From positions 1,306,110-1,370,109 of the forward strand of contig CAWCNY010000002.1 of the NCBI GenBank assembly GCA_963797095.1: a DNA stretch of 64,000 nt, given 5' to 3'. How positions within the stretch are numbered: the stretch's first letter is position 1; every line of letters begins with the position of its first letter. Position numbers and translations under genes: made by a program. The notes under the pieces are model-generated. The model did not search any database and had not been told where the DNA came from. It saw only the letters and a list, made by a program, of their open reading frames with translations. The stretch comes from an uncultured Chloroflexia bacterium. GTDB taxonomy: Bacteria > Chloroflexota > Chloroflexia > QHBQ01 > JADMIH01. Of this stretch, positions 84 through 40,353 are shown piece by piece.

Positions 84-1540
84 TTAGGCCATTTCTTCTG
101 CCGGGCCGCTTGTCAGGCCCGTTTTCTTTTGCCTGCGCTTCTTGATCTGCTCGGAGAGCCAGGGGAAGGAGAGGCCCAGGCTCGCCAGGGTGTTTAGCGG
201 CGCGAAGATATCTATGTTGCCCAGATTGAAGCCGCCGCTCTCCTGGGCCTGACCATCTACGGTCACCTGAACCAGTCCGGACCAGATCTGTCCTTCTATG
301 GATTGGTCGCTCCATGTGGGCTTGCCTTGAGCGACCAGGCTGACCAGCAGAGTCTGTGGGCCTTGCGTCTTAGGGCTTGCTATCCAGGTCCATTCCAGGC
401 GTTGCTCACTCATCCACTGAGATTGCTGTGGTTCAGCGGGCGAGATGTTGAACTCAGGGCCGTCCACGCTGGCGCTCAGGGTAGTGACACCGTAGTCAGC
501 CAGGGCCTCTTTTATGGAGGTGGCCTGGGTGTCGGCAGGCTCAACCAAAACGGTGATCGGAAGCGAGACATTGGCGTTCATATTGGTGGGGGCTTGTGTG
601 CTCACCCTTACTTTGGGCGGGCTTGCCTGTAGTAGTTGCTCTACTTTGACGACGCTTGCGAATCCAGGTGGCGAGAAGATGGCTGTGCCACCCCTTTCGG
701 CGCGTCCTGGAGGTGTTTGTGCTGCCTCAGGAGTTGAGGTTGGATGGGGGTATGTATATGGTGGGGTGGGCAGGATGTATCCCCCAGGTTTGACAGTAGT
801 AGTGCTTGTTGAAGTGGTAGTTGGCGTGTCCGTGGGGGTTGGGGTGAAGGATGATGCAGGCGTGCCGGTTGGTGAATGGGTGGGGGCGCTGGTCGCGACG
901 GTTGGAGTGAGCGTCATTGTATAGGTAGCTGTGGGCGGGTTAATGCGGGTAGGAGTGGGCGTGTGGGTGTTGGTGGCTGTGGGGATTGTCTCAACGGTGA
1001 CAGCCGCAAGGGGTGTCAGGGTGGCTGTTGGAGGCGCTATAGTAGGTGTCAAGGTTGGCGTGCCGGTTGGCGGTGGAGGAGGTACGGTTGGCGTGGGGGG
1101 AGTTACGACCGCTGTATCAGTTGGTGGGATCGCCTCTGTCTCTGTAGCCGTGGGACCGGTGGGTACCAGGGCGGTGTCTGTAGGTTGTAGGGACGTTGGC
1201 TGCTCAGGTGCGCTTGTTGGCGTTGCCAGCGGCTGGGTGGATGGCTCAGCCGTAGGGACGGCAGTGCTTGTGATTGCCTCAAGGGTCAATGCGGCGGTCG
1301 CAGATGGGATTGGCGTGGTGGTTAGGCCTGGGTGGTGGGCGTGGGCTGCTGGAAGGCAAGTGGCACCAGGGGGACAGGCTCTGATACGAGCATTGTGCGA
1401 CTCTGGCAAACGCACGCGCCGTTTTGCGTTTGAGTCGTAGGTCGAAGCGCGGCCTCGCCAACGCCGAGCACGATCAAGAACAGGCCAACAAGGGCCAACA
1501 GGCGGTTTGGTATTGCCCCGAGTCCCCTCCTTGTGCTCAA
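84..1540 (-). pseudogene. Thr/Pro-rich membrane-anchored surface protein with a C-terminal beta-rich domain; apparent 1-bp frameshift near 1330
   Basis: ORF 1322..1540 encodes a signal-like N-terminus (NRLLALVGLFLIVLGVG). ORF 84..1550 has a nonsense-looking N-terminus, then a T/P-rich linker, a globular domain and a hydrophobic/basic tail. One extra C in the CCC run (plus-strand GGG 1330-1332) joins the two in frame. Confidence 0.65.
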
Positions 1541-1753
1541 CTGAGTGCAAAATCGAGCGACTGGCGTAAGCTAGACCTCTAACTCGCGGAAACCGGCTTA
1601 TATCCGCTCATAACCAACCGAGCCTGTAAGAAAGGCTATTGCGCAAAGGTAATATTACCACGGTACAGGGGGCTTGCCTACCGGCAATTTACGGCATAGC
1701 TGGTTTTACGGATTTTGGTTCTTGAATTGGCGAAAAGTAGCCAATCTTTCCTA

Positions 1754-1811
1754 TTGATTTTCAGTATAGAAGATGCTAACATACATATGTACTTATAAAT
1801 ACATATGTATT
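1754..1811 (+). promoter_or_regulatory. Sigma-A type promoter overlapped by twin TACATATGTA palindromes (candidate operator)
   Basis: TTGATT (1754-1759), 17 bp spacer, then extended -10 TGcTAACAT (1774-1782). TACATATGTA lies at 1782-1791 and 1800-1809; the second extends to the perfect 14-mer AATACATATGTATT (1798-1811). Confidence 0.6.
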
Positions 1812-1826
1812 GTAATGGAGAAGACA

Positions 1827-2510
1827 ATGGCTCACCCCGCGACCTTTCAAATGCCCACTACCGATGCCCTTACCGGCCTGCTGACATCGCCATATTACCG
1901 GCACCTTTTGCGCGATGAATTGCTGCCGCAGGCAGAGCAATCAGGAGATCCGCTTACTCTTGTGCTGGTGGATGTGGACGGGTTTGAAGCTGTGAACAAG
2001 GCGCATGGGCGCAAGTGCGGCGATGACGTGCTTGTCACGGTGGCTCGTCTGTTGCAGGAGACTTTGCCGGAAAGCGCTCTTATCAGCAGGTACAGCGGCG
2101 ATGAATTCGCGGCTGCTCTGCCGGACACGCCACTGGATGATTGCTTTACGCTGCTTGAGGAGTTCCGGCGGAGAGTGGCTGCCTACCAGTGGGCAGATTG
2201 GCCTGGCTTGTCTGTCACTTGCTCGGTTGGGCTAGCAGCATACCCGGCGCACGGCCACGACGAGTCGGAGCTTGCCCGGCAGGGCGACGATGCGCTGTAC
2301 AATGCCAAGCTGACGGGGCGCAATAAGGTGTCGCTGCCGCTGGCAGACAGCCGTATGGTCACCAAGACCAGCCATTATACCGACGCCCAGTTGAAGCGCC
2401 TATCGCAACTGGCAAAGACTCTCAACCGCAAGGACGCGTCTTTGTTGCGTGAGGCGTTGGACGATCTACTCAAGAAGTACAACGACCGGTTGAATAGCCT
2501 GGCCGGATAG
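1827..2510 (+). CDS. GGDEF (SGDEF) domain protein fused to a C-terminal ribbon-helix-helix domain
   Basis: Motifs DALTGL, DVDGF..VN..HG...GD, RYSGDEF, SVG, ALYNAKLTGRN. The tail MVTKTSHYTDAQLKRLSQLAKTLNRKDASLLREALDDLLKKY has an RHH beta-alpha-alpha pattern. GGAG at 1817-1820 favours the ATG at 1827. Confidence 0.85.
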   Translation: MAHPATFQMPTTDALTGLLTSPYYRHLLRDELLPQAEQSGDPLTLVLVDVDGFEAVNKAHGRKCGDDVLVTVARLLQETLPESALISRYSGDEFAAALPDTPLDDCFTLLEEFRRRVAAYQWADWPGLSVTCSVGLAAYPAHGHDESELARQGDDALYNAKLTGRNKVSLPLADSRMVTKTSHYTDAQLKRLSQLAKTLNRKDASLLREALDDLLKKYNDRLNSLAG

Positions 2511-2594
2511 TAGATAGAAACGGATAAGAGTGCTGTGGGGCGGCTGCGGGACCTGCTTGACGTACCTTATCTTGCACGAATTGTCCCTTCCAGT

Positions 2595-2688
2595 TCATCC
2601 ACACGGTGGATAACATCCCCGATTTCTGAGCAAAAACCTCTTGCAATTGGGTTATATTAAGGCATTATCCAACGTGGAATTATCCACA
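2595..2688. promoter_or_regulatory. Cluster of DnaA-box-like 9-mers upstream of dnaG
   Basis: TTATCCACA perfect at 2680-2688; TCATCCACA 2595-2603; GGTGGATAA (rc TTATCCACC) 2605-2613; TTATCCAAC 2665-2673. Confidence 0.6.
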
Positions 2689-2777
2689 ATCACGCGCATA
2701 TACTCGCGCTCCCGGCCTACATTTTAGCTTAGCCTCCGCGATTCCCGCACTTCTGTAGCGACTACTCGCAACCCGCA

Positions 2778-4715
2778 ATGCAAGACGACGTTATCTTCGA
2801 GATCAAACAACGCCTCGATGTGGAGACGGTGGTGGGCGAGACCGTTCGCCTGAGCCGTACCGGGCGCAACCTCAAAGGGCTTTGTCCTTTCCACAGCGAG
2901 AAGACCCCTTCGTTCGTCGTGTATCCGAAGGATGGCTCTTACCATTGCTTCGGTTGCGGCCAGGGCGGTGATATCTTCACATTCATGATGAAGACGCAAG
3001 GGCTGGATTTCAGGGGAGCGCTGGAGAAGTTGGCTGGGCGGGCGGGCGTCGAGCTAAAACCTCGCAACGAAAGTGCGGCGGCCGAGGATCGCGCACGCGA
3101 GCGCTTGAAAGAACTCTGCGCTGCTGCCGCCACGTTTTACGCTAACCTCTTGCGCACCAACCCTGGAGCCGCTGCTGCCCGTGCCTACGCCGAAAAGCGC
3201 GGCATTACGCCTGCCACTATCGAGACCTTCGAGATAGGCTATGCGCCGGACTCTTTCGACATACTGGGCAATTATCTACTTGGCCGTGGCTATTCCTCGC
3301 AGGAGTTGATCGATGCGGGCGTGGTGGCCGAGCGCGAATCTGGTGGACACTATGACCGCTTCCGCAACCGTTTGCTTTTCCCGATCCGGGATGCTAAGGG
3401 AGCGGTGGTCGGCTTCGGTGGGCGGTCGCTTGGCGACTCTACCCCCAAGTACCTCAACTCGCCGCAGTCGGCGGTGTTCGACAAGAGCAGCATCCTGTAC
3501 GGGTTCGACCTCGCTCGCCCACACATCCAGCGTTCGGGGCAGGTGGTGATCGTCGAAGGGTACATGGACGTGGTGATCGCCCACCAGGCGGGCCAGCACA
3601 ACGTGATCGGCACAATCGGCACGGCACTTACGGATCGCCATGCGGACCTGCTCAAGCGCATCGCAAAGCGTGTGATCCTGTGTCTCGACCCGGATACCGC
3701 CGGGGACATGGCTGCCCTCAAGGGTTCAGAGGTGCTGCAGGAGCACGCCGAGCGGATCGCCATCCCGATTCGTGGTGAGCGCGGTCTCATGGGTGTGGAG
3801 CGCCGGTCCGATCTCGAAATCCGGATCATGCAGCTACCTCGCGGCGTCGATCCGGATGAGCTATTGTTATCCGAGGGCGGGCCTGCTCAATGGGACAACC
3901 TGCGAGAGTCTGCGCTGCCATTGGTAGACCATGTGCTGGGAGTAGCTACCTCGCGCTACGACACCAATACGGCGCACGGCAAGTCGGATGCGGTGGGTGA
4001 GCTTGCCCTCTTTATTCGCGAGATAGGCGACCCTATCCAGCGCGCCCACTACATACAGCGCGTGGCCTCGGCCCTTCGAGTTCCGGAGGACGCGGTGGAG
4101 GAAGCGGTAGGCAAGCGGCAGCGGCAGGCGGGCAGGAGGCCTGGGACGTATGATCGCAGACCGCCCACGCCAACCGGGCCTGATGCACAACCCGAAAGCG
4201 AAGCGCAAGGAGTACGCTCAACTTCCAGGATCGACGCGACCCCTGAGGAACACCTTCTGAGCCTGGTGCTTCGCTACCCACAGACAACATGGATGGCGGG
4301 CGTGCCTGTGCCGGAGGATTTTACCCGCCTGGAAAACCGCCTTATCTACGAGGCTATGGTGAGCGTGGCGTCTTCTGTCGATAAAGTATCCCCCAACGCC
4401 GAAGTGATTCGTGCCTCGGCACTTGATCAACTCGACCCCGCTCTCCAGCCTCACTTCGAGCGCATACTTACCCGCGAGGAGCCGGAGCTATATCGCTTCG
4501 CGCTCCCCTATGAATTGGAGAACCGCCTGAAGCGCCTGCGGCGCTACAACGACCTGATGTGGAACCAGCAGTGCGGGTTGATGATCCGCGAAGCTGAAAT
4601 GGCGGGCGATAACGAGACTATTGCCAAGCTGCTGCCCCTCTGGTCGCGCTCGCTCGCACGCTACCAGCACTATTACCCGAAGCAAAGCACCGTGTACCGC
4701 GACACCCGTGACTGA
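2778..4715 (+). CDS. dnaG: DNA primase
   Basis: CHC2 zinc finger CPFHSEKTPSF...HCFGC, DRFRNRLLFPI, KYLNSP, VEGYMDV, TOPRIM DPDTAG. Confidence 0.98.
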   Translation: MQDDVIFEIKQRLDVETVVGETVRLSRTGRNLKGLCPFHSEKTPSFVVYPKDGSYHCFGCGQGGDIFTFMMKTQGLDFRGALEKLAGRAGVELKPRNESAAAEDRARERLKELCAAAATFYANLLRTNPGAAAARAYAEKRGITPATIETFEIGYAPDSFDILGNYLLGRGYSSQELIDAGVVAERESGGHYDRFRNRLLFPIRDAKGAVVGFGGRSLGDSTPKYLNSPQSAVFDKSSILYGFDLARPHIQRSGQVVIVEGYMDVVIAHQAGQHNVIGTIGTALTDRHADLLKRIAKRVILCLDPDTAGDMAALKGSEVLQEHAERIAIPIRGERGLMGVERRSDLEIRIMQLPRGVDPDELLLSEGGPAQWDNLRESALPLVDHVLGVATSRYDTNTAHGKSDAVGELALFIREIGDPIQRAHYIQRVASALRVPEDAVEEAVGKRQRQAGRRPGTYDRRPPTPTGPDAQPESEAQGVRSTSRIDATPEEHLLSLVLRYPQTTWMAGVPVPEDFTRLENRLIYEAMVSVASSVDKVSPNAEVIRASALDQLDPALQPHFERILTREEPELYRFALPYELENRLKRLRRYNDLMWNQQCGLMIREAEMAGDNETIAKLLPLWSRSLARYQHYYPKQSTVYRDTRD

Positions 4716-4840: not shown

Positions 4841-6400
4841 ATGGCGACAGCGGAATCAATTCACGGTATGGATATGCCGGAACCCACAAACTCCGGCGCG
4901 ACCAGGCAACCCAGGCTTAATAATATCACCCTGTTCCCGGTTGATGACCTGCTTCGTATGGGGCGGGTCCATGATCATGACTCGCACGATGATCGCGGGC
5001 TGGACGCTGATCCGCATGATCCTATGCTGCATTTCGGCCTCGGCCTGGACGATGCCATGGGTCTGGGTATGCCCGACCTTACAGATGATGGAGCTGGCCT
5101 CCGTGAAGAGGACGACGTTCATATTGACGCCGTGCTCGACATGGAGGGGGTGAGTATTGACGACCCTGTGAGGATGTATCTGCGGGAGATAGGGCGCGTT
5201 TCGCTCCTCACAGCCGACCACGAAGTCTCGCTCGCCAAGCGTATAGAGCGCGGGGAGGCCCTGGGCAATTTCCTGAGGGATCTTGAGGACCAGTACGGGT
5301 TCACGCCACCGCCTGAGATCATTTGCCTGGAAGTGTATGAATGGCTGGTTACCCACTGGCGTATGCTGGAGGAGGTATACAAGGTCCAGTACTCCGATGC
5401 TACCCCCGGCTCGCGCCGCACTCTGCTCTTATCGCTTTCGCCTGCCGATACTATTGACCAGGGCCTGCTGCGCAAACTGGCCGTTATGGAGGGGTGTAGT
5501 CCTGAGCGAGCCGCCGAAGTGGTGCACGATACATTACTTACTTCGCTTATGCTCCCTGAGCCTTTGCAGCTTGCATTTGACGAGGGGAACTGGCCCGATA
5601 ATGAAGGTCTTGCCGATATTCTTCTCAGTATTGAAGAGCAACTGCAAAATCATTGGCGAGAGATATTAGAGGATGGCTGCAAGGCTCGCAAGCACCTGGT
5701 GGAGGCCAACCTGCGGCTTGTGGTGTCGGTCGCCAAGAAGTACACAGGGCGTGGTATGAGCCTGCTCGACCTGATCCAGGAGGGGAACCTGGGGCTGATG
5801 AAGGCGGTGGAAAAATTCCGCTATAGTAAAGGTTATAAGTTTTCGACTTATGCAACATGGTGGATACGGCAGGCCATCACGCGAGCTATCGCCGACCAGG
5901 GCCGCACTATCCGCATCCCTGTACACATGCACGAAACGATCAACCGGGTGCTGAAGACCTCACGGCGTCTCATGCAAGAGATCAGCCGCGATCCGACCGC
6001 TGAAGAGTTGGGGTTGGCGGTTGGCATGCCCCCGGATAGGGTACGCGAGATCCTCAAGATACACCAGGACCCTATCTCTCTTGAGACGCCCATCGGTGAG
6101 GAAGAGGACAGCCACCTGGGCGACTTTATCGAGGATCAAAAGGCGGTTGCGCCATCAGATGCGGCATCTCAGCATTTACTGCGCGAGCAACTGAACAGCG
6201 TGTTGAATACCCTCAGCAAGCGCGAGCGACGGGTGTTGCAATTGCGCTATGGCCTGGAAGATGGCAGGCCGCGCACCCTTGAAGAGGTGGGGCGCGAGTT
6301 CAATGTCACCCGCGAGCGCATACGCCAGATCGAGACCAAGGCCCTACGGAAACTTCGGCACCCCTCGCGGGCAAAGAAGTTGAAGGATTATGTGGATTAG
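4841..6400 (+). CDS. rpoD: Primary RNA polymerase sigma factor (sigma70/SigA)
   Basis: [56 protein letters not shown]; lies downstream of dnaG. Confidence 0.97.
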
Positions 6401-21051: not shown

Positions 21052-21822
21052 ATGATCCAGACACCCACCGCTCTTGAACCAAACGCTGTAGTCGCCGTAG
21101 ACGTGGTGCTATTTACCGTCCGCGAAGCTGAGCGTGTGGAGGATATGTGGCAGGTGCTGTTGGTACAGACCGACGACCCGGCCTTCGGGCACAAATGGGC
21201 TTTGCCGGGGGTACTATCCCGCGCCGACGAGACCTTCGATGATGCCGCCCGCCGTGCTTTACGCAATAAGGCTGGCCTCGATGCTCACGATTGGTATCTG
21301 GACCAGTTAGGTACATTCGGCGACCCAGGTCGCGATACACGTGGTCGGGTGGTGTCGGTGGCGCACGTGGCCCTGGTGCGGAGCGACCACCTCAGCCTGG
21401 TGCCGGGCGGCAGCGTGCTTCGGGCCGAGTGGCGTCCGGTTCTCCGGGTGCTTCCTGAACAATTGGCCTTCGATCATGGCGCTATTCTGAGCACTGGGAT
21501 GGAGCGCATCCGGAGCAAGCTTCGCTACTCCTGGGTGGCTTTCCAACTTCTCCCCGAAGAGTTCACCCTTCCTGAACTACGCGACATCTATGCCGCCATA
21601 TTGGATCCGACCATCCTACGGCTGCATACTAGCAACTTTAAGAAGGCCTTCTCCGCCCTCTTCGCCACAGGCGCGCTTGTGCCTACGGGCAAACGCTCCG
21701 AAGGTGGAGGGCGGGTGGGACGCCCAGGGGATTTATATCGTTTCAGTGGGCCGGTTGCAGGTACCTGGGCCAGGGAGCTTCCCTGGCATGGGGAAGTTGG
21801 ACGAGTGACGAGTGACGAGTGA
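21052..21822 (+). CDS. nrtR: NrtR-family regulator (Nudix + winged HTH)
   Basis: VAVDVVLF, WALPG, degenerate Nudix box, FGDPGRD, LAFDH, FTLPELR...SNF wHTH; heads the NAD biosynthesis operon. Confidence 0.85.
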   Translation: MIQTPTALEPNAVVAVDVVLFTVREAERVEDMWQVLLVQTDDPAFGHKWALPGVLSRADETFDDAARRALRNKAGLDAHDWYLDQLGTFGDPGRDTRGRVVSVAHVALVRSDHLSLVPGGSVLRAEWRPVLRVLPEQLAFDHGAILSTGMERIRSKLRYSWVAFQLLPEEFTLPELRDIYAAILDPTILRLHTSNFKKAFSALFATGALVPTGKRSEGGGRVGRPGDLYRFSGPVAGTWARELPWHGEVGRVTSDE

Positions 21823-21881
21823 CGATGGCTCACTGTCGTCGTCTGTCCTTCGTCTATCGTTCGTTTTGAAAGGACATAGCA

Positions 21882-23426
21882 ATGTTCTACGGTGAAGGTA
21901 GCCCGGCGGACAGTACAGAAGATCGCCTTGTGGTAATTGGCTCAGGGGTGGCGGGCTTAGCCGCTGCGCTGGCAGCCGCCGAGCGTCGAATGCCTGTGCT
22001 TCTTGTGACTGCGGGCCAGCCGGTTGCGGGTTCAAGCTGGTGGGCGCAGGGCGGGATCGCCGCCGCCGTCGGTGACGACGATTCCCCGAATATCCATTAC
22101 GACGACACGCTGAGCGTGGGGGTTGAGCTAAACGACTGCGAGGCGGTGCATCTCCTCACCGAGGAAGGCCGCCGCCTGGTGACGGGGTTGCTGGACACCG
22201 GAGTGCCGTTCGATGGGACGGACCTGCACCCCGACCTCGGATTGGAAGCGGGCCATAGCCGCCGGCGCATCCTGCATGCGGGTGGAGGGGCTACTGGCGC
22301 TGTGCTGTCTGATGCCTTGCTGGACCGCGCAGTCCAGCACCGGCGCGTATCGGTGCTTCCCAACACTCCTGTTGATCGTCTGCTGACCGAGAACGGTCGA
22401 GTGGTGGGCGTTGGCAGCGGCGCAGCCGAGTATCGAGGTAATGCCGTGGTCCTGTGTACAGGGGGATACGCGGGCCTGTGGGGGCGCTCCACCAACCCAC
22501 GCGGCAACCAGGGGATCGGCGTCGCCCTCGCATGGCGGGCTGGTGCTTCGCTGGCCGATCTCGAATTCGTGCAGTTTCACCCCACCGCGCTCTCGCTGCC
22601 CGGTGCGCCCGCTTTCCTGCTGACCGAGGCCTTGCGCGGCGATGGCGCGCTGCTGGTGGATGCTACGGGCCACAAAATGGTGGACCCTTTGCTCCCACGC
22701 GATGTAGTGGCGCGTGCCATCGCCCGCCACCTGAAAGAGAAGGGTCCGGTCTACCTCACCATGCGCCATCTCGACCCTTCTGTGAGCGACCACTTCGCCT
22801 CGATCAAGAAGCAACTTAGCGAGTATGGCCTCCACCTGGCGCGCGACCTTATCCCGGTTGCTCCCGCTGCCCACTATTGCATGGGTGGCATCCGCACCGA
22901 CGTGGATGGACGCTCGACGCTGCCTGGCCTGTATGCTGCGGGCGAGGTCGCCTGCACAGGTGTGCAGGGAGCCAACCGGTTGGCCTCCAACTCATTGCTG
23001 GAATGCCTGGTGTTTGGCCGCCGCGCGGCGCTTGCCTCCCTTACCGATGAGGCTGATGCTCATGCGTCGTGGCCTACCGTTGCGCTTCCCACGGCCTTTG
23101 ACCTGGATGCAATCAAACTGATCGACCTTCCTCAAGAAGTTCTTGATACACACCTGGGTGAGCGCCTGGACAGCGAGCTGGGGGTAGAGCGCAACGGCCC
23201 TCAGATGGAAGCCTTGATCGCCCGGTTGCCCGATCCTGCATCTACAACAGCGGCTCCGGGCCATATCGTGGCTTCCCTGGTGGCCCGCGCTGCCCTCTTA
23301 CGCACCGAGAGCCGTGGCGGCCACTACCGCTCGGATTACCCCGAAACCAACCCTGAATGGCGCGGGCGCATCGTATGGAACCACGATACCAATCCCCAAT
23401 TCGAGGAGGTCCCACATTGCGACTAG
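21882..23426 (+). CDS. nadB: L-aspartate oxidase
   Basis: GSGVAGL, AQGGIAA, EAGHSRRRILH, QFHPT, AAHYCMGG, GANRLASNSLLE, ESRGGHYR. Confidence 0.95.
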   Translation: MFYGEGSPADSTEDRLVVIGSGVAGLAAALAAAERRMPVLLVTAGQPVAGSSWWAQGGIAAAVGDDDSPNIHYDDTLSVGVELNDCEAVHLLTEEGRRLVTGLLDTGVPFDGTDLHPDLGLEAGHSRRRILHAGGGATGAVLSDALLDRAVQHRRVSVLPNTPVDRLLTENGRVVGVGSGAAEYRGNAVVLCTGGYAGLWGRSTNPRGNQGIGVALAWRAGASLADLEFVQFHPTALSLPGAPAFLLTEALRGDGALLVDATGHKMVDPLLPRDVVARAIARHLKEKGPVYLTMRHLDPSVSDHFASIKKQLSEYGLHLARDLIPVAPAAHYCMGGIRTDVDGRSTLPGLYAAGEVACTGVQGANRLASNSLLECLVFGRRAALASLTDEADAHASWPTVALPTAFDLDAIKLIDLPQEVLDTHLGERLDSELGVERNGPQMEALIARLPDPASTTAAPGHIVASLVARAALLRTESRGGHYRSDYPETNPEWRGRIVWNHDTNPQFEEVPHCD

Positions 23427-24280
23427 ATCAAATCGAGCCGTTCGCCGCCCTGGGGTATAACGACGCCGTGGAAGCTATCATCCTGCTGGCCCTGTCGGAG
23501 GACATAGGCAGGGGAGACATTACGACCGAGTCTACAGTGCCAGCCGAGAACGAGGCCCGCGCGGTTATCCTCCAGAAGACCACCGGTGTGCTGTGTGGAT
23601 TGCCCGTAGTGCAGGCGGTTTTCGCGCTGCTCGACCCGCGTGTCATAGTCGAACCTCTTGCCGACGAAGGCTCCAGGGGCGACCGCCGAGAGGTAGCTCG
23701 CATCACCGGCCCCGCGAGGGCCATCCTGACGGGCGAGCGCACGGCCCTCAACTTTTTACAGCGTTTATCGGGCGTGGCTACCATGAGCCGCCGGGCAAGA
23801 GAAGCAGTGGAAGGCACGAAGGCCACGGTGTTGGACACGCGCAAGACGACCCCAGGCCATCGCGCCCTCGAAAAGTATGCCGTGCGCGTGGGTGGCTCTC
23901 GCAACCACCGGGCCGGGTTGGACGACGCGGTCCTTATCAAGGATAATCACATTCGCGCCGCTGGGGGAATACGCGCCGCCGTTGAAGGGGTGCGTAAGCG
24001 TGTTGGTCCTGCCCAGAAGATCGAGGTGGAGGTGACCAACCGCACGGAGCTTGATCAAGCCCTGGCCGCACGTGCCGAGATCATCATGCTGGACAACTAC
24101 GAAATAGACGCTATGCGCGAACAGGTCCGGTATGTGGCGGGCCGCGCCAAGCTCGAAGCGAGCGGCGGAATCACCCTTGCTAACCTCACCGATATCGCCC
24201 GCACAGGCGTCGATTACATATCACTTGGGGCGCTGACCCATTCGGCAGGCTCCCTCGATTTCTCATTGGAGATAGTTTGA
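23417..24280 (+). CDS. nadC: Nicotinate-nucleotide diphosphorylase (quinolinate phosphoribosyltransferase)
   Basis: EDIGRGDITT, GERTALNF, DTRKTTPG, LIKDNH, IMLDN, EASGG. TTG start after GAGGAGG. Confidence 0.95.
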   Translation: MRLDQIEPFAALGYNDAVEAIILLALSEDIGRGDITTESTVPAENEARAVILQKTTGVLCGLPVVQAVFALLDPRVIVEPLADEGSRGDRREVARITGPARAILTGERTALNFLQRLSGVATMSRRAREAVEGTKATVLDTRKTTPGHRALEKYAVRVGGSRNHRAGLDDAVLIKDNHIRAAGGIRAAVEGVRKRVGPAQKIEVEVTNRTELDQALAARAEIIMLDNYEIDAMREQVRYVAGRAKLEASGGITLANLTDIARTGVDYISLGALTHSAGSLDFSLEIV

Positions 24281-25326
24281 TGGCAAATACAGAGACTTCA
24301 ACAAAGACTGAAACACGCAAACCTATGCACCCCGCGCTGATGCGCTTCTTCCAGCAGGACCCTGAGGAAGTCACGCGGCTTCAAGAAGAAGTTCGCCAAC
24401 TTGCCAGAGAGCGGCAGGCGGTCATCATGGCGCACAACTACCAGGTGCCCGAAGTGCAGGACGTGGCCGACTTCGTGGGCGACTCGCTGGGGCTGGCTAT
24501 TGAGGCCTCCAAGACCACTTCACCTGTGATCGTGCTGTGCGGCGTGTACTTCATGGCCGAGACCGCCAAGCTCCTCAACCCCAATCGCACCGTGATCATC
24601 CCCGACGAGACGGCGGGCTGCTCGCTTGCCGACTCCATTACGGTCGCGCAATTGCGCGAGTGGAAAGCGCAGCACCCTGGGGCCGTGGTGGTCAGCTATG
24701 TCAATACTACCGCCGATATCAAGGCTGAGACGGATATCTGCGTGACGAGCGGCAATGCCCAGGCGATTATTCGCTCCGTGCCCGAAGAGAAGACGATCCT
24801 GTTCCTTCCCGATATGTACTTGGGGACCTGGCTCAGGAATTCGCTGAACCGCGAGAACATGATCATATGGGCGGGCGAGTGCCACGTGCACGCGGGCATA
24901 CGCACGAGCGAGATCTACGAGATGATGGCCCAGTACCCGGATGCCGACCTGCTGATCCATCCTGAGTGCGGCTGCACCAGCCGTTTTGTGCTGGCCCACG
25001 AGCAGGGCAAACTCCCTGAGAACACCTTCGTGCTCTCGACTGAGGGGATGATCAAGCACGCCCACAGCGCGCCCAACAAGACCCACCTTGTAGCCACCGA
25101 AACGGGCATCTTGCATCGCCTGGAGAAAGAGAACCCCGACCGCACCTTCGTGCCCGCCGACCGGGCTGCCGTCTGCCGCTACATGAAGCAAATCACGATT
25201 GAGAAACTGCGCAATTCGTTGCGAGATATGCAGCCGCAAGTAGAGGTGCCAGCCGAGATCGCGGATAAGGCGAGGTTGTCAATCGAGCGAATGCTGGCTG
25301 TGCCGGGAAATATCAAGAAGGATTGA
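24280..25326 (+). CDS. nadA: Quinolinate synthase
   Basis: AHNYQ, GDSL, CGVYFMAE, AGCSLA, YVNT, CHVH, HPEC, CRYMK. Confidence 0.96.
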   Translation: MANTETSTKTETRKPMHPALMRFFQQDPEEVTRLQEEVRQLARERQAVIMAHNYQVPEVQDVADFVGDSLGLAIEASKTTSPVIVLCGVYFMAETAKLLNPNRTVIIPDETAGCSLADSITVAQLREWKAQHPGAVVVSYVNTTADIKAETDICVTSGNAQAIIRSVPEEKTILFLPDMYLGTWLRNSLNRENMIIWAGECHVHAGIRTSEIYEMMAQYPDADLLIHPECGCTSRFVLAHEQGKLPENTFVLSTEGMIKHAHSAPNKTHLVATETGILHRLEKENPDRTFVPADRAAVCRYMKQITIEKLRNSLRDMQPQVEVPAEIADKARLSIERMLAVPGNIKKD

Positions 25327-26393: not shown

Positions 26394-27215
26394 TTAGAGG
26401 CCCCTTGTTGCAAGCATCTCTTTAGCAGGGGTTCTATCACCTGTACATGAAATCATACGAGGTGCATCAAGGATCGTGATTTCAAACTCCAGCTCCCTGT
26501 AAAGGGTGAGAATTCGTTCTGTAGCCTGATTCGAAGCAACAAGCGGACTAGTTTGTTGCGCGAGCCAGCTTGCGAGCCGGACCTGGTCGTCCCAGGAAAA
26601 GCCGCCGGAACTGTACGTAGTAAATTCAACGTCATAGGGTGGATCAGCGTAAATGAAATCGGTTGGCTCGATCCTGATGTCGCTGAAATCGCCAAAATCC
26701 AGCTTCCAATGGGCTACTACTGCTTTGTATGCAGCGAAATCTCGTGTATAGGTAATCGTTTTGTATCTTCCAAACGGAACATTGAACTCTCCCCTATTGT
26801 TGAATCTGCATAGGCCATTGAACCCGGTTCTGTTCAAATAGTAAAAGAGGGAGGCAGCTTCTTGACTCTCCCCCTCTCCCTCGCGGATCAACTGATTGAA
26901 ACGGTTCCTCTGCCGGTAGTACACCTCCTGGTCGTTCTCCATTTCAATATCTGCGACCAGACCATGCTTAAGCCACCTGTAGAAATTAATCAGGTGCGGG
27001 TTTGTATCATTCAAGAGCGCATTTTCGGGACGCAGCCCCAGCGTGACTGCCATCCCGCCAACAAAAGGCTCCACAAGTCGCCGGTGTTCATGTGTGTTCC
27101 AGGCAGCATGAAGATGGGGCACGAGCCATCTCTTGCCCCCGGCCCACTTCAGTGGTGGGGGTAGCGCTGCGCTTTGAGTTGCTACGGGCGAGGATTGTCG
27201 CGAAATGGCTTGCAT
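26394..27215 (-). CDS. DNA adenine methyltransferase, Dam/D12 class
   Basis: LKWAGGK, EPFVGG, YLNRTGFNGL, NVPFG, DPPY. Confidence 0.92.
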   Translation of the reverse strand: MQAISRQSSPVATQSAALPPPLKWAGGKRWLVPHLHAAWNTHEHRRLVEPFVGGMAVTLGLRPENALLNDTNPHLINFYRWLKHGLVADIEMENDQEVYYRQRNRFNQLIREGEGESQEAASLFYYLNRTGFNGLCRFNNRGEFNVPFGRYKTITYTRDFAAYKAVVAHWKLDFGDFSDIRIEPTDFIYADPPYDVEFTTYSSGGFSWDDQVRLASWLAQQTSPLVASNQATERILTLYRELEFEITILDAPRMISCTGDRTPAKEMLATRGL

Positions 27216-39830: not shown

Positions 39831-40353
39831 CTGCCTGCAACCGGTCGCGCAAAGCCGCCAGCCCCCTGTGCAACCTCGACTTGACCGTACCTAAGGGCGC
39901 TCCCGTCAACTCGGCTATTTCGTCTAGCTGCAAATCTGCGTAAAAGCGGAGCGCCATGACCTTTCTCTGCTCCTCATCCAATGTGTCCAACGCTTCCTCT
40001 AACTCGGCATCGTAATCGGTAGCTGCAAGTGCCCAAGAAGGGGTTTCGCCCAGCCTTTCTGCTATGGAGTCGGAGTAGGGTGCTGTATGCAGTTGGCGCT
40101 TGCGCGCTTTCATATGACAGCGGTTCGCCACAAGCGTAAGGAGCCAGGGGCGGAATGGCCTGCCTACCTGGAAGCGGGGCATGGCGCGCCATGCATCCAC
40201 CCACGCTTCCTGTACAGCGTCTTCGGCGTCCGCGGGGTCATGTAGCAGTACCCGTGCCGTACGCTCGGCTCTCTCGGCATACATATCTACCAGACTGCGA
40301 AACGCGTTGCGGTCGCCGCTTTGCGCCCGCCGGACCGATTCGCTTTCGTCCAT
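39802..40353 (-). CDS. ECF-family RNA polymerase sigma factor
   Basis: AQSGDRNAF, DAEDAVQE, FRPWL, EIAE..G.PLGTVKSRLHRG. Confidence 0.93.
   Translation of the reverse strand: MDESESVRRAQSGDRNAFRSLVDMYAERAERTARVLLHDPADAEDAVQEAWVDAWRAMPRFQVGRPFRPWLLTLVANRCHMKARKRQLHTAPYSDSIAERLGETPSWALAATDYDAELEEALDTLDEEQRKVMALRFYADLQLDEIAELTGAPLGTVKSRLHRGLAALRDRLQADGRTHREEE

Follow-up and report, generated by a model that had tools for sequence, protein, structure and literature searches.

Diguanylate cyclases usually operate under N-terminal sensor domains and allosteric product inhibition, and their link to transcription usually runs via separate receptors of cyclic diguanylate (c-di-GMP). The present study concerns a gene that departs from this scheme, located in a 64-kb stretch of the chromosome of an uncultured Chloroflexia bacterium (contig CAWCNY010000002.1; the whole stretch analysed is hereafter called the window). 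Its 227-residue product carries a GGDEF domain followed by a C-terminal ribbon-helix-helix (RHH) domain, and two short palindromes lie in front of its coding sequence. With the cyclases PleD, WspR, DgcB and DosC the window protein has in common the GGDEF fold and the metal- and guanine-binding residues, and its signature reads SGDEF. Canonical cyclases, however, dimerise via N-terminal sensor or coiled-coil domains, many of them carrying the RxxD motif, whereas the window protein has no N-terminal domain, no RxxD, and a C-terminal element predicted both to dimerise and to bind DNA.

Several described systems resemble this design in part. PutA is a trifunctional proline utilisation enzyme which its RHH domain turns into an autogenous transcriptional repressor (PMC5293562, in excerpt). 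The two have only a design in common, an enzyme and an RHH domain in one polypeptide, and are not homologous except at the level of the RHH fold class: PutA has its RHH at the N-terminus, together with proline dehydrogenase and pyrroline-5-carboxylate (P5C) dehydrogenase, whereas the window protein has it at the C-terminus, together with GGDEF. NikR likewise sets RHH dimers on a ligand-binding oligomerisation domain, and its operator comprises two sites about two helical turns apart, GTATGA-N16-TCATAC (excerpts of PMC7055735), which recalls the 18 or 22 bp between boxes in the window family; the NikR sites are nevertheless half-sites of one large palindrome, while each box in the window is itself palindromic, and the ligand domain of NikR is an ACT-like metal-binding tetramer rather than GGDEF. 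CdbA and CdbB are RHH DNA-binding proteins tied to c-di-GMP. A preliminary description of the present locus had invoked CdbA as binding both DNA and c-di-GMP, in agreement with the available portion of PMC7156744, where the Myxococcus xanthus protein appears as a small, abundant, nucleoid-associated tetramer with more than 500 sites, binding c-di-GMP through the RHH itself in competition with DNA. Unlike the window protein, CdbA has no GGDEF domain, and no chain named CdbA or CdbB is listed in the searches of solved-structure sequences with the window RHH at E ≤ 10. Finally, DgcY/HhmR of Halomonas hydrothermalis combines a GGDEF enzyme lacking an autoinhibitory site with feedback via a transcription factor, a LysR-type protein that inhibits the cyclase in a c-di-GMP-promoted complex (PMC12421958, as excerpted); there the transcription factor is a separate protein, whereas in the window it would be the same chain, with the proposed feedback acting on transcription. 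The window protein is a member of the GGDEF and RHH superfamilies, and not of the PutA, NikR, CdbA or DgcY/HhmR families.

We consider it likely that this protein is an autorepressor whose RHH dimers occlude the promoter of its own gene and which, in Chloroflexota, is probably also an active cyclase. The preliminary description had reported a sensor-less GGDEF domain fused to an RHH, with twin palindromes on the gene's promoter, and had proposed that the RHH dimerises the chain and represses the gene, coupling DNA occupancy to c-di-GMP synthesis or sensing. What it observed is confirmed. Its interpretation receives partial support, and the case for the operator is now considerably stronger, whereas the coupling is speculative. 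The palindrome TACATATGTA is present in exact form at 1782-1791 and 1800-1809, 18 bp centre to centre, just as first described. These are the only exact copies in the window, where about 0.023 would be expected from composition, and the sole copy with one mismatch lies within an open reading frame (ORF) at 40280; allowing up to one mismatch, there are thus 3 matches against 0.97 expected, a number reached by 4 of 100 shuffles. Extended to 12 bp, and without assignment to a strand, the predicted operator box 1 (ATACATATGTAC, 1781-1792, core 1782-1791) scores 20.6 of 23.4 bits on a weight matrix, and the predicted box 2 (ATACATATGTAT, 1799-1810, core 1800-1809) scores the maximum of 23.4 bits. 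No second two-box site was found in the window, the next best single boxes being those at 40279 and 43153, both within ORFs.

The boxes lie on what we infer to be the promoter of the gene. On the forward strand, a -35-like hexamer TTGATT (1754-1759) stands 17 nt upstream of TAACAT (1777-1782), which together with TG at 1774-1775 and one intervening base forms an extended -10-like element (1774-1782) overlapping the left edge of box 1; both elements were read from the sequence. Box 1, which has high information content across 14 anchored sources (introduced below), spans the edge of the -10 and the point where transcription probably starts; box 2 is situated early in the 5' untranslated region.

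Across genomes the domain fusion and the boxes recur together, the boxes being tied to the gene and to its core promoter. A single scan of species-representative genomes provided 43 loci, and the upstream comparison used 39 sources, namely the window and 38 loci with usable upstream DNA (L025, with 6 bp upstream, was left out). Within 200 bp upstream of the gene, the 12-mer box ATACATATGTAT occurs with at least 9 of 12 matches in 36 of the 39 sources, with at least 10 in 32 and with at least 11 in 25. Shuffled upstream regions predict 3.62, 0.43 and 0.01 sources at these thresholds, and control regions at fixed offsets in the same loci reach them in 6, 0 and 0 of 161 cases. The preliminary description had named absence of the palindromes upstream of homologues as the finding that would tell against it; the conservation recorded here goes the other way. 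The enrichment is also evident from the 8-mer core (up to one mismatch), with 56 matches in the 10,073 bp of the -200 to +60 regions against 27 in 278,332 bp elsewhere in the loci, or 5.56 against 0.097 per kb, a 57-fold difference, and from the weight matrix at 12 bits or more, with 58 boxes upstream against 3 in 266,954 bp elsewhere.

As to their arrangement, the boxes are separated by exactly 18 bp in 14 sources, by 22 bp in L002 and L003, and by 10 bp in L031, L033 and L040, loci of a distant clade in which the boxes straddle TTGACA. When the upstream regions are anchored on the boxes, high information content is confined to the two boxes and the other intergenic DNA is unalignable. A crude promoter search put the best promoter-like element (-35 to +20) over a box in 29 of the 36 box-bearing sources. 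Box 1 lies on the -10 in the window, L001, L003 and L014, the last three of which also have TAACAT as the -10 and a TTGAC-type hexamer at an equal distance from box 1; in L017, L020 and L022, box 1 lies in the spacer and box 2 just past the -10.

Relatives of the window protein were collected by a word-indexed search, which returned 557 proteins at E ≤ 1e-3. The 120 close homologues listed range from 197 to 251 residues, with identities of 58-100% over 84-99% of the query; where named, they are diguanylate cyclases or GGDEF proteins of Chloroflexia, Thermomicrobiales and Oscillochloris, and a hand count found a precomputed RHH_3 domain on 23 of them. The loci include Herpetosiphon aurantiacus DSM 785 (L018), Oscillochloris, Roseiflexaceae, Caldilineaceae, Ardenticatenales and Thermomicrobiales, together with a distant group, 40-45% identical, from Planctomycetota, Hydrogenedentota, Nitrospirota (Nitrospiraceae) and Armatimonadota (Armatimonadetes). 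A tree of 40 sequences comprises two deep clades (support 100/98), one of Chloroflexota and Thermomicrobiota and the other of Planctomycetota, Hydrogenedentota, Nitrospirota and Armatimonadota, and the box is present in both.

A conserved operon context was also considered, and was rejected for the Chloroflexota clade on translated searches and Pfam annotation of neighbouring ORFs. When the loci were searched by tblastn with the window DnaG, RpoD and the Thr/Pro-rich protein encoded upstream, the first and third were found in L001 only and RpoD nowhere; dnaG follows the gene only in L001 (90% identical), and no Pfam family recurs among the 72 downstream and 35 nearest upstream ORFs of this clade, whose functions are unrelated between loci. 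Since the box tracks the gene while the neighbours are not conserved, gene and box move as a unit, as expected if the product binds the box.

A different regulator, for example a LexA-type repressor, might instead bind the palindromes, with the RHH having another target or serving only for dimerisation. The box centre ACATATGT is indeed common to the Firmicutes LexA consensus TACGAACATATGTTCGTA, as given in the excerpted text of PMC2248561, and single GAAC/GTTC-like boxes occur in promoters downstream of the homologue in L005 and L018. The flanks of the boxes, however, consistently read ATAC...GTAT and not GAAC...GTTC, the boxes having the form ATAC-ATAT-GTAT; they do not carry the GAACn4GTTC core of Cheo-type LexA sites, and GAACNNNNGTTC has 0 matches in the window. 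In addition, the box follows one gene across at least five phyla with no conserved neighbour, a pattern that calls for a second conserved factor unless the box is bound by the product of that same gene. We therefore regard binding by another regulator as improbable.

The two downstream boxes just mentioned are GAACATATGTAC (L005, about 4805) and AAACATTTGTTC (L018, about 4696). Each lies in the spacer of a good TTGAC-17-TATAAT-type promoter, ahead of genes for an MFS transporter and an AAA_24 protein, and both resemble LexA-type boxes more than the RHH box.

The palindromes could also act as RNA, forming a hairpin in the 5' leader that serves as an attenuator or processing site, rather than as protein-binding DNA. 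The segment 1775-1835 does fold box 1 on box 2 (-12.3 kcal/mol, z -2.25), and 5 of 200 shuffles fold as well; yet it is the sequence of the boxes that is conserved and not merely their complementarity, many loci have a single box or have boxes in the -35/-10 spacer or over the -35, hence untranscribed, and the likely transcription start falls within box 1. Rfam gave no match at E ≤ 1 across 1400-3000. A leader hairpin is accordingly very improbable.

If the boxes are bound by the product of the gene, the RHH domain (2355-2492, forward strand) would be the part responsible. It consists of a strand, RMVTKTSHYT, followed by two helices, and is delimited by Pfam RHH_3, DSSP and a dimer model, in which it forms the predicted interface. 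Both domains of the fusion pass their Pfam cut-offs. PF12651 (RHH_3) matches residues 189-223 with E 9e-5 and 22.8 bits against a cut-off of 21.6, numbered, as for the GGDEF match below, on a 231-residue reading from 1815; relatives score higher, up to 35.6 bits (e.g. P0127). DSSP applied to the AlphaFold model assigns a strand at 176-185 and helices at 186-198 and 203-225, consistent with the strand-helix-helix topology expected of the RHH that had been proposed for the C-terminus. In the ESM Atlas, residues 165-227 gave a first match of 0.77, to be taken as a lead only, in a cluster named as RHH protein in which 70% of members carry RHH_3 and 20% GGDEF. According to the alignments, the C-terminal linker and the RHH are the best-conserved part of the protein, with a strand of the form RM(V/I)TKTS(H/Y)YT; RM.TKTS.Y does not vary, nor does much of either helix, among 39 sequences that otherwise share 37-82% identity with the window protein.

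Dimerisation through this domain, which the preliminary description had also put forward, is supported by a model only. The homodimer model reached a median score of 0.47, against 0.02 for the best of three controls, and passed the mark, which in calibration was reached by 20 of 30 proteins known as same-chain pairs and by 1 of 23 solved as single chains. Its runs share at least 72% of contacts, with partner pLDDT (predicted local distance difference test) of at least 82, and all confident contacts fall, symmetrically, within residues 177-222, which comprise strand 177-186 and both helices. Since RHH dimers are common among solved structures, the pass indicates likeness to them and not self-binding; with confident contacts in the RHH only, the model says nothing for or against pairing of GGDEF domains.

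An RHH autorepressor could also belong to a toxin-antitoxin or signalling defence system. The domain bears weak similarity to Antitox_RHH (E 0.029) and to RelB-like models (E 0.028), but the scores, 15 and 14.7 bits, fall far short of the respective cut-offs of 27.2 and 50 bits, the PADLOC defence models gave no match, there is no conserved partner gene, and the neighbours in the window are the housekeeping genes dnaG and rpoD. Of the explanations considered, we judge an antitoxin-like module the least probable, to the point of being barely credible.

The GGDEF domain extends from 1860 to 2327 on the forward strand and is identified concordantly by Pfam, NCBIfam, AlphaFold and Foldseek. PF00990 matches residues 16-171 with E 7.2e-31 (107.6 bits, cut-off 23.8) and TIGR00254 scores 113.2 bits against a cut-off of 37.4, while none of the NCBIfam equivalog models, named cyclases included, reaches its cut-off for the window protein. 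With only about 12 residues in front of the GGDEF fold, the protein has no sensor domain. The AlphaFold monomer has a pLDDT of 87 overall and at least 95 across the GGDEF domain, and its top Foldseek matches are solved diguanylate cyclase domains (DgcB, PleD, DosC, WspR) at E of about 1e-17, with 26-35% identity and root-mean-square deviations of about 1.3-5 Å across about 160-176 columns. Among the Foldseek matches listed there is no solved chain combining GGDEF and RHH, the alignments barely exceeding the GGDEF part of about 170 residues.

The residues presumed to be required for catalysis are retained. The window protein has the SGDEF signature, with which enzymes can be active, the DxD pair, and the N and D that had been called guanine-specifying, all of them conserved. 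The signature [G/S/A]GDE[F/L/I/M/Y] is present in all 120 close homologues listed (65 with GGDEF, 40 with SGDEF), as are its D-E pair and D49, D51 and K161, while 116 retain N57, 114 D66 and 116 R165; the roles of D49, D51, N57, D66, K161 and R165 in metal, guanine and phosphate contacts are those we assume by reference to PleD. With its GTP-binding (guanosine triphosphate), metal-binding and catalytic residues all kept, the protein of the window's clade is probably an active diguanylate cyclase. The absence of RxxD, also noted earlier, extends to the relatives: at the inhibitory-site (I-site) position, five residues before the signature, the window protein reads PESA, and none of the 120 close homologues listed has RxxD within 9 residues upstream of the signature, where an R..D occurs in 5 of 84 representatives of the wider family.

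That wider family was delineated by searching 1.84 billion cluster representatives (50% identity level) with a profile of the RHH tail only, which gave 401 matches at E ≤ 1e-3 and 184 at E ≤ 1e-10. Among the 150 of these 401 that were listed, the profile of the GGDEF part matches 82 of the 84 representatives of at least 190 residues, the other two being multi-RHH proteins, and 33 of the 66 shorter ones; short representatives without GGDEF are mostly apparent fragments, beginning in the end of GGDEF or at an internal Met. By these numbers the architecture is no rarity: GGDEF-RHH proteins form a broad family, not unique to the window and uncharacterised in the literature searched, which covered few subscription journals and contained no description of the fusion or of its operator. 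Counting the 25 commonest signatures of the 84 longer representatives, at least 36 proteins read x-G-[D/E]-E-[F/Y]. The RHH strand also varies in some family members, with types such as MVLKSSYY and KLVTKTAHYT.

Further arrangements were seen with Pfam: two GGDEF domains with RHH, REC-GGDEF-RHH, GGDEF-RHH-REC, GGDEF-RHH-FliG_C, GGDEF-RHH with a piece of FlhA (FHIPEP), and GGDEF-RHH-FtsK_gamma. The longer fusions (P0142, P0155, P0170, P0171, P0184, P0191, P0201, P0220, P0227 and P0239), some of which may be gene-calling fusions, hint that other lineages tie such proteins to motility and two-component signalling.

Several observations weigh against an autorepressing cyclase. Of the well-spaced promoter claimed in the preliminary description, the 17-nt spacing stands and the layout recurs in homologues, but the elements are weak, with 8 of 12 consensus matches, and a consensus scan of 1550-2800 with a cut at 9 of 12 calls no promoter; the element is retained because its layout recurs in homologous loci. 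L030, L035 and L039 have no box at 9 of 12 matches or more (the gene start in L035 is uncertain), and the crude promoter call misses the box in 7 of the 36 sources. On the protein side, the RHH_3 score is marginal, only 1.2 bits over the cut-off, the tail of the monomer model is of low confidence (pLDDT 55-70), and phmmer and profile searches of PDB sequences with the RHH tail returned nothing significant, the best RHH match being the CopG-family chain 7by2 at E 0.33, behind an unrelated chain at E 0.01. Both the box and the RHH strand are nearly invariant, which leaves no covariation by which to test the putative direct binding. Spacings of 10, 18 and 22 bp would place dimers on different helix faces, which argues against a rigid dimer-dimer contact, and the box scan for further targets covered the 64-kb window and about 8 kb per locus. 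Lastly, the signature Glu is lost in at least 19 proteins under the same 25 signatures of the wider representatives, and in 6 of 10 distant-clade sequences (GGDAF, GGDAY, GGDQF).

A further explanation is that the protein acts chiefly as a transcription factor, with a GGDEF domain that senses nucleotides or serves oligomerisation instead of working as a cyclase, and with its own promoter as only one of several targets. The wider family keeps the RHH strand while its signature is often degenerate (GGDQF, SGDSF, GGDAF), so that the constant features of the family would be DNA binding and the GGDEF fold instead of cyclase activity; the positions contacting GTP are largely retained, and the same type of RHH is found fused with REC, FliG_C, the FlhA piece and FtsK_gamma. 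On the other hand, every one of the 120 close homologues listed keeps a plausible catalytic signature and the metal-binding Asp, the window has no second two-box site, its next best boxes being single and inside ORFs, and just the 3 boxes of 12 bits or more mentioned above lie outside the gene's own upstream regions. Such a transcription factor deserves serious consideration in the degenerate clades and is less likely in the clade of the window; taken as a general account, we find it unlikely.

Under autorepression by an active enzyme, which we prefer for the Chloroflexota, the module would be stand-alone, monocistronic and self-regulating. The 227-residue protein would dimerise via its C-terminal RHH, with one RHH dimer per 12-bp palindrome ATACATATGTAT. 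Two boxes 18 bp apart would span the -10, the transcription start and the first bases of the transcript, and since they cover the -10 and start, bound protein would keep RNA polymerase off its own promoter, amounting to negative autoregulation. In the absence of RxxD, cyclase output would be capped by transcriptional autorepression and not by allosteric product inhibition, so that in Chloroflexota the amount of cyclase, rather than its activity, would be under feedback. Direct binding to the boxes, repression and enzyme activity are what we infer. More speculatively, GTP or c-di-GMP on the GGDEF domains might tune DNA binding or bridge two DNA-bound dimers.

The coding sequence itself runs from 1827 to 2510 on the forward strand (227 residues and a TAG stop at 2508-2510). 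Although the first ATG in the mechanical ORF table is at 1773, the ATG at 1827 was preferred as the start because all homologues align from that Met and because a Shine-Dalgarno-like GGAG, read from the sequence at 1817-1820 (forward strand), lies 6 nt before it; a database protein of 227 residues (P0002) is 100% identical. The window (57% G+C) comes from a housekeeping region of a Chloroflexia-type chromosome, in which the gene sits between a 488-residue ORF on the reverse strand (84-1550) and, on the forward strand, dnaG (2778-4715) followed by rpoD (4841-6400). The 488-residue product is very rich in Thr and Pro and has no Pfam match and, among the fetched loci, a relative in L001 only. The spacer between the GGDEF-RHH gene and dnaG contains three DnaA-box-like 9-mers within 94 bp (2595-2688), namely TCATCCACA, TTATCCACC (minus strand) and the perfect TTATCCACA; as such 9-mers number 12 in the whole window against 9.3 expected, which is not above chance, only their local clustering is of note. 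Elsewhere in the window, an NrtR-like regulator is followed by nadB, nadC and nadA homologues (21052-25323), and a D12-class adenine DNA methyltransferase is encoded at 26397-27215. Among the 44 window ORFs of at least 110 residues, no EAL, HD-GYP or PilZ domain was found at E ≤ 1e-8.

In the distant clade, mostly in Hydrogenedentota, the gene that follows the degenerate GGDEF-RHH gene, in the same orientation, encodes a conserved protein of 484-566 residues without a Pfam match (L031:4854-6395, L032:3423-4874, L035:1149-2846, L037:4715-6322, L040:4188-5720). This protein combines a lipoprotein-like N-terminus with Lys/Glu-rich repeats surrounding an MTFGLVGG motif, and its C-terminal region is conserved, with identities of 39% between L031 and L040 and 50% between L031 and L035; an aconitase-family gene comes next in L031, L035 and L040.

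A bolder proposal, which we offer tentatively and consider rather unlikely as a whole, is that these proteins represent a distinct class of one-component regulators, a single small protein reading both DNA and nucleotide. Operator DNA might then act as a scaffold bringing together the GGDEF domains of two RHH dimers and switching c-di-GMP synthesis on or off, or GTP or c-di-GMP held between GGDEF domains might act as a corepressor; the result would be a self-contained c-di-GMP homeostat seated on the chromosome, and its degenerate relatives of other phyla would serve as repressors of the same build that sense GTP or c-di-GMP. Assays of binding, repression and activity can be designed directly, since the predictions specify the operator, its spacing and the contact strand. 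An enzyme fold and a predicted sequence-specific DNA-binding domain are joined in one 227-residue chain, with a defined, phylogenetically conserved putative operator. This makes a small and clean system in which to ask if DNA can regulate a second-messenger synthase or be the site of its local action, what restrains cyclases that lack an I-site, and what degenerate GGDEF domains sense.

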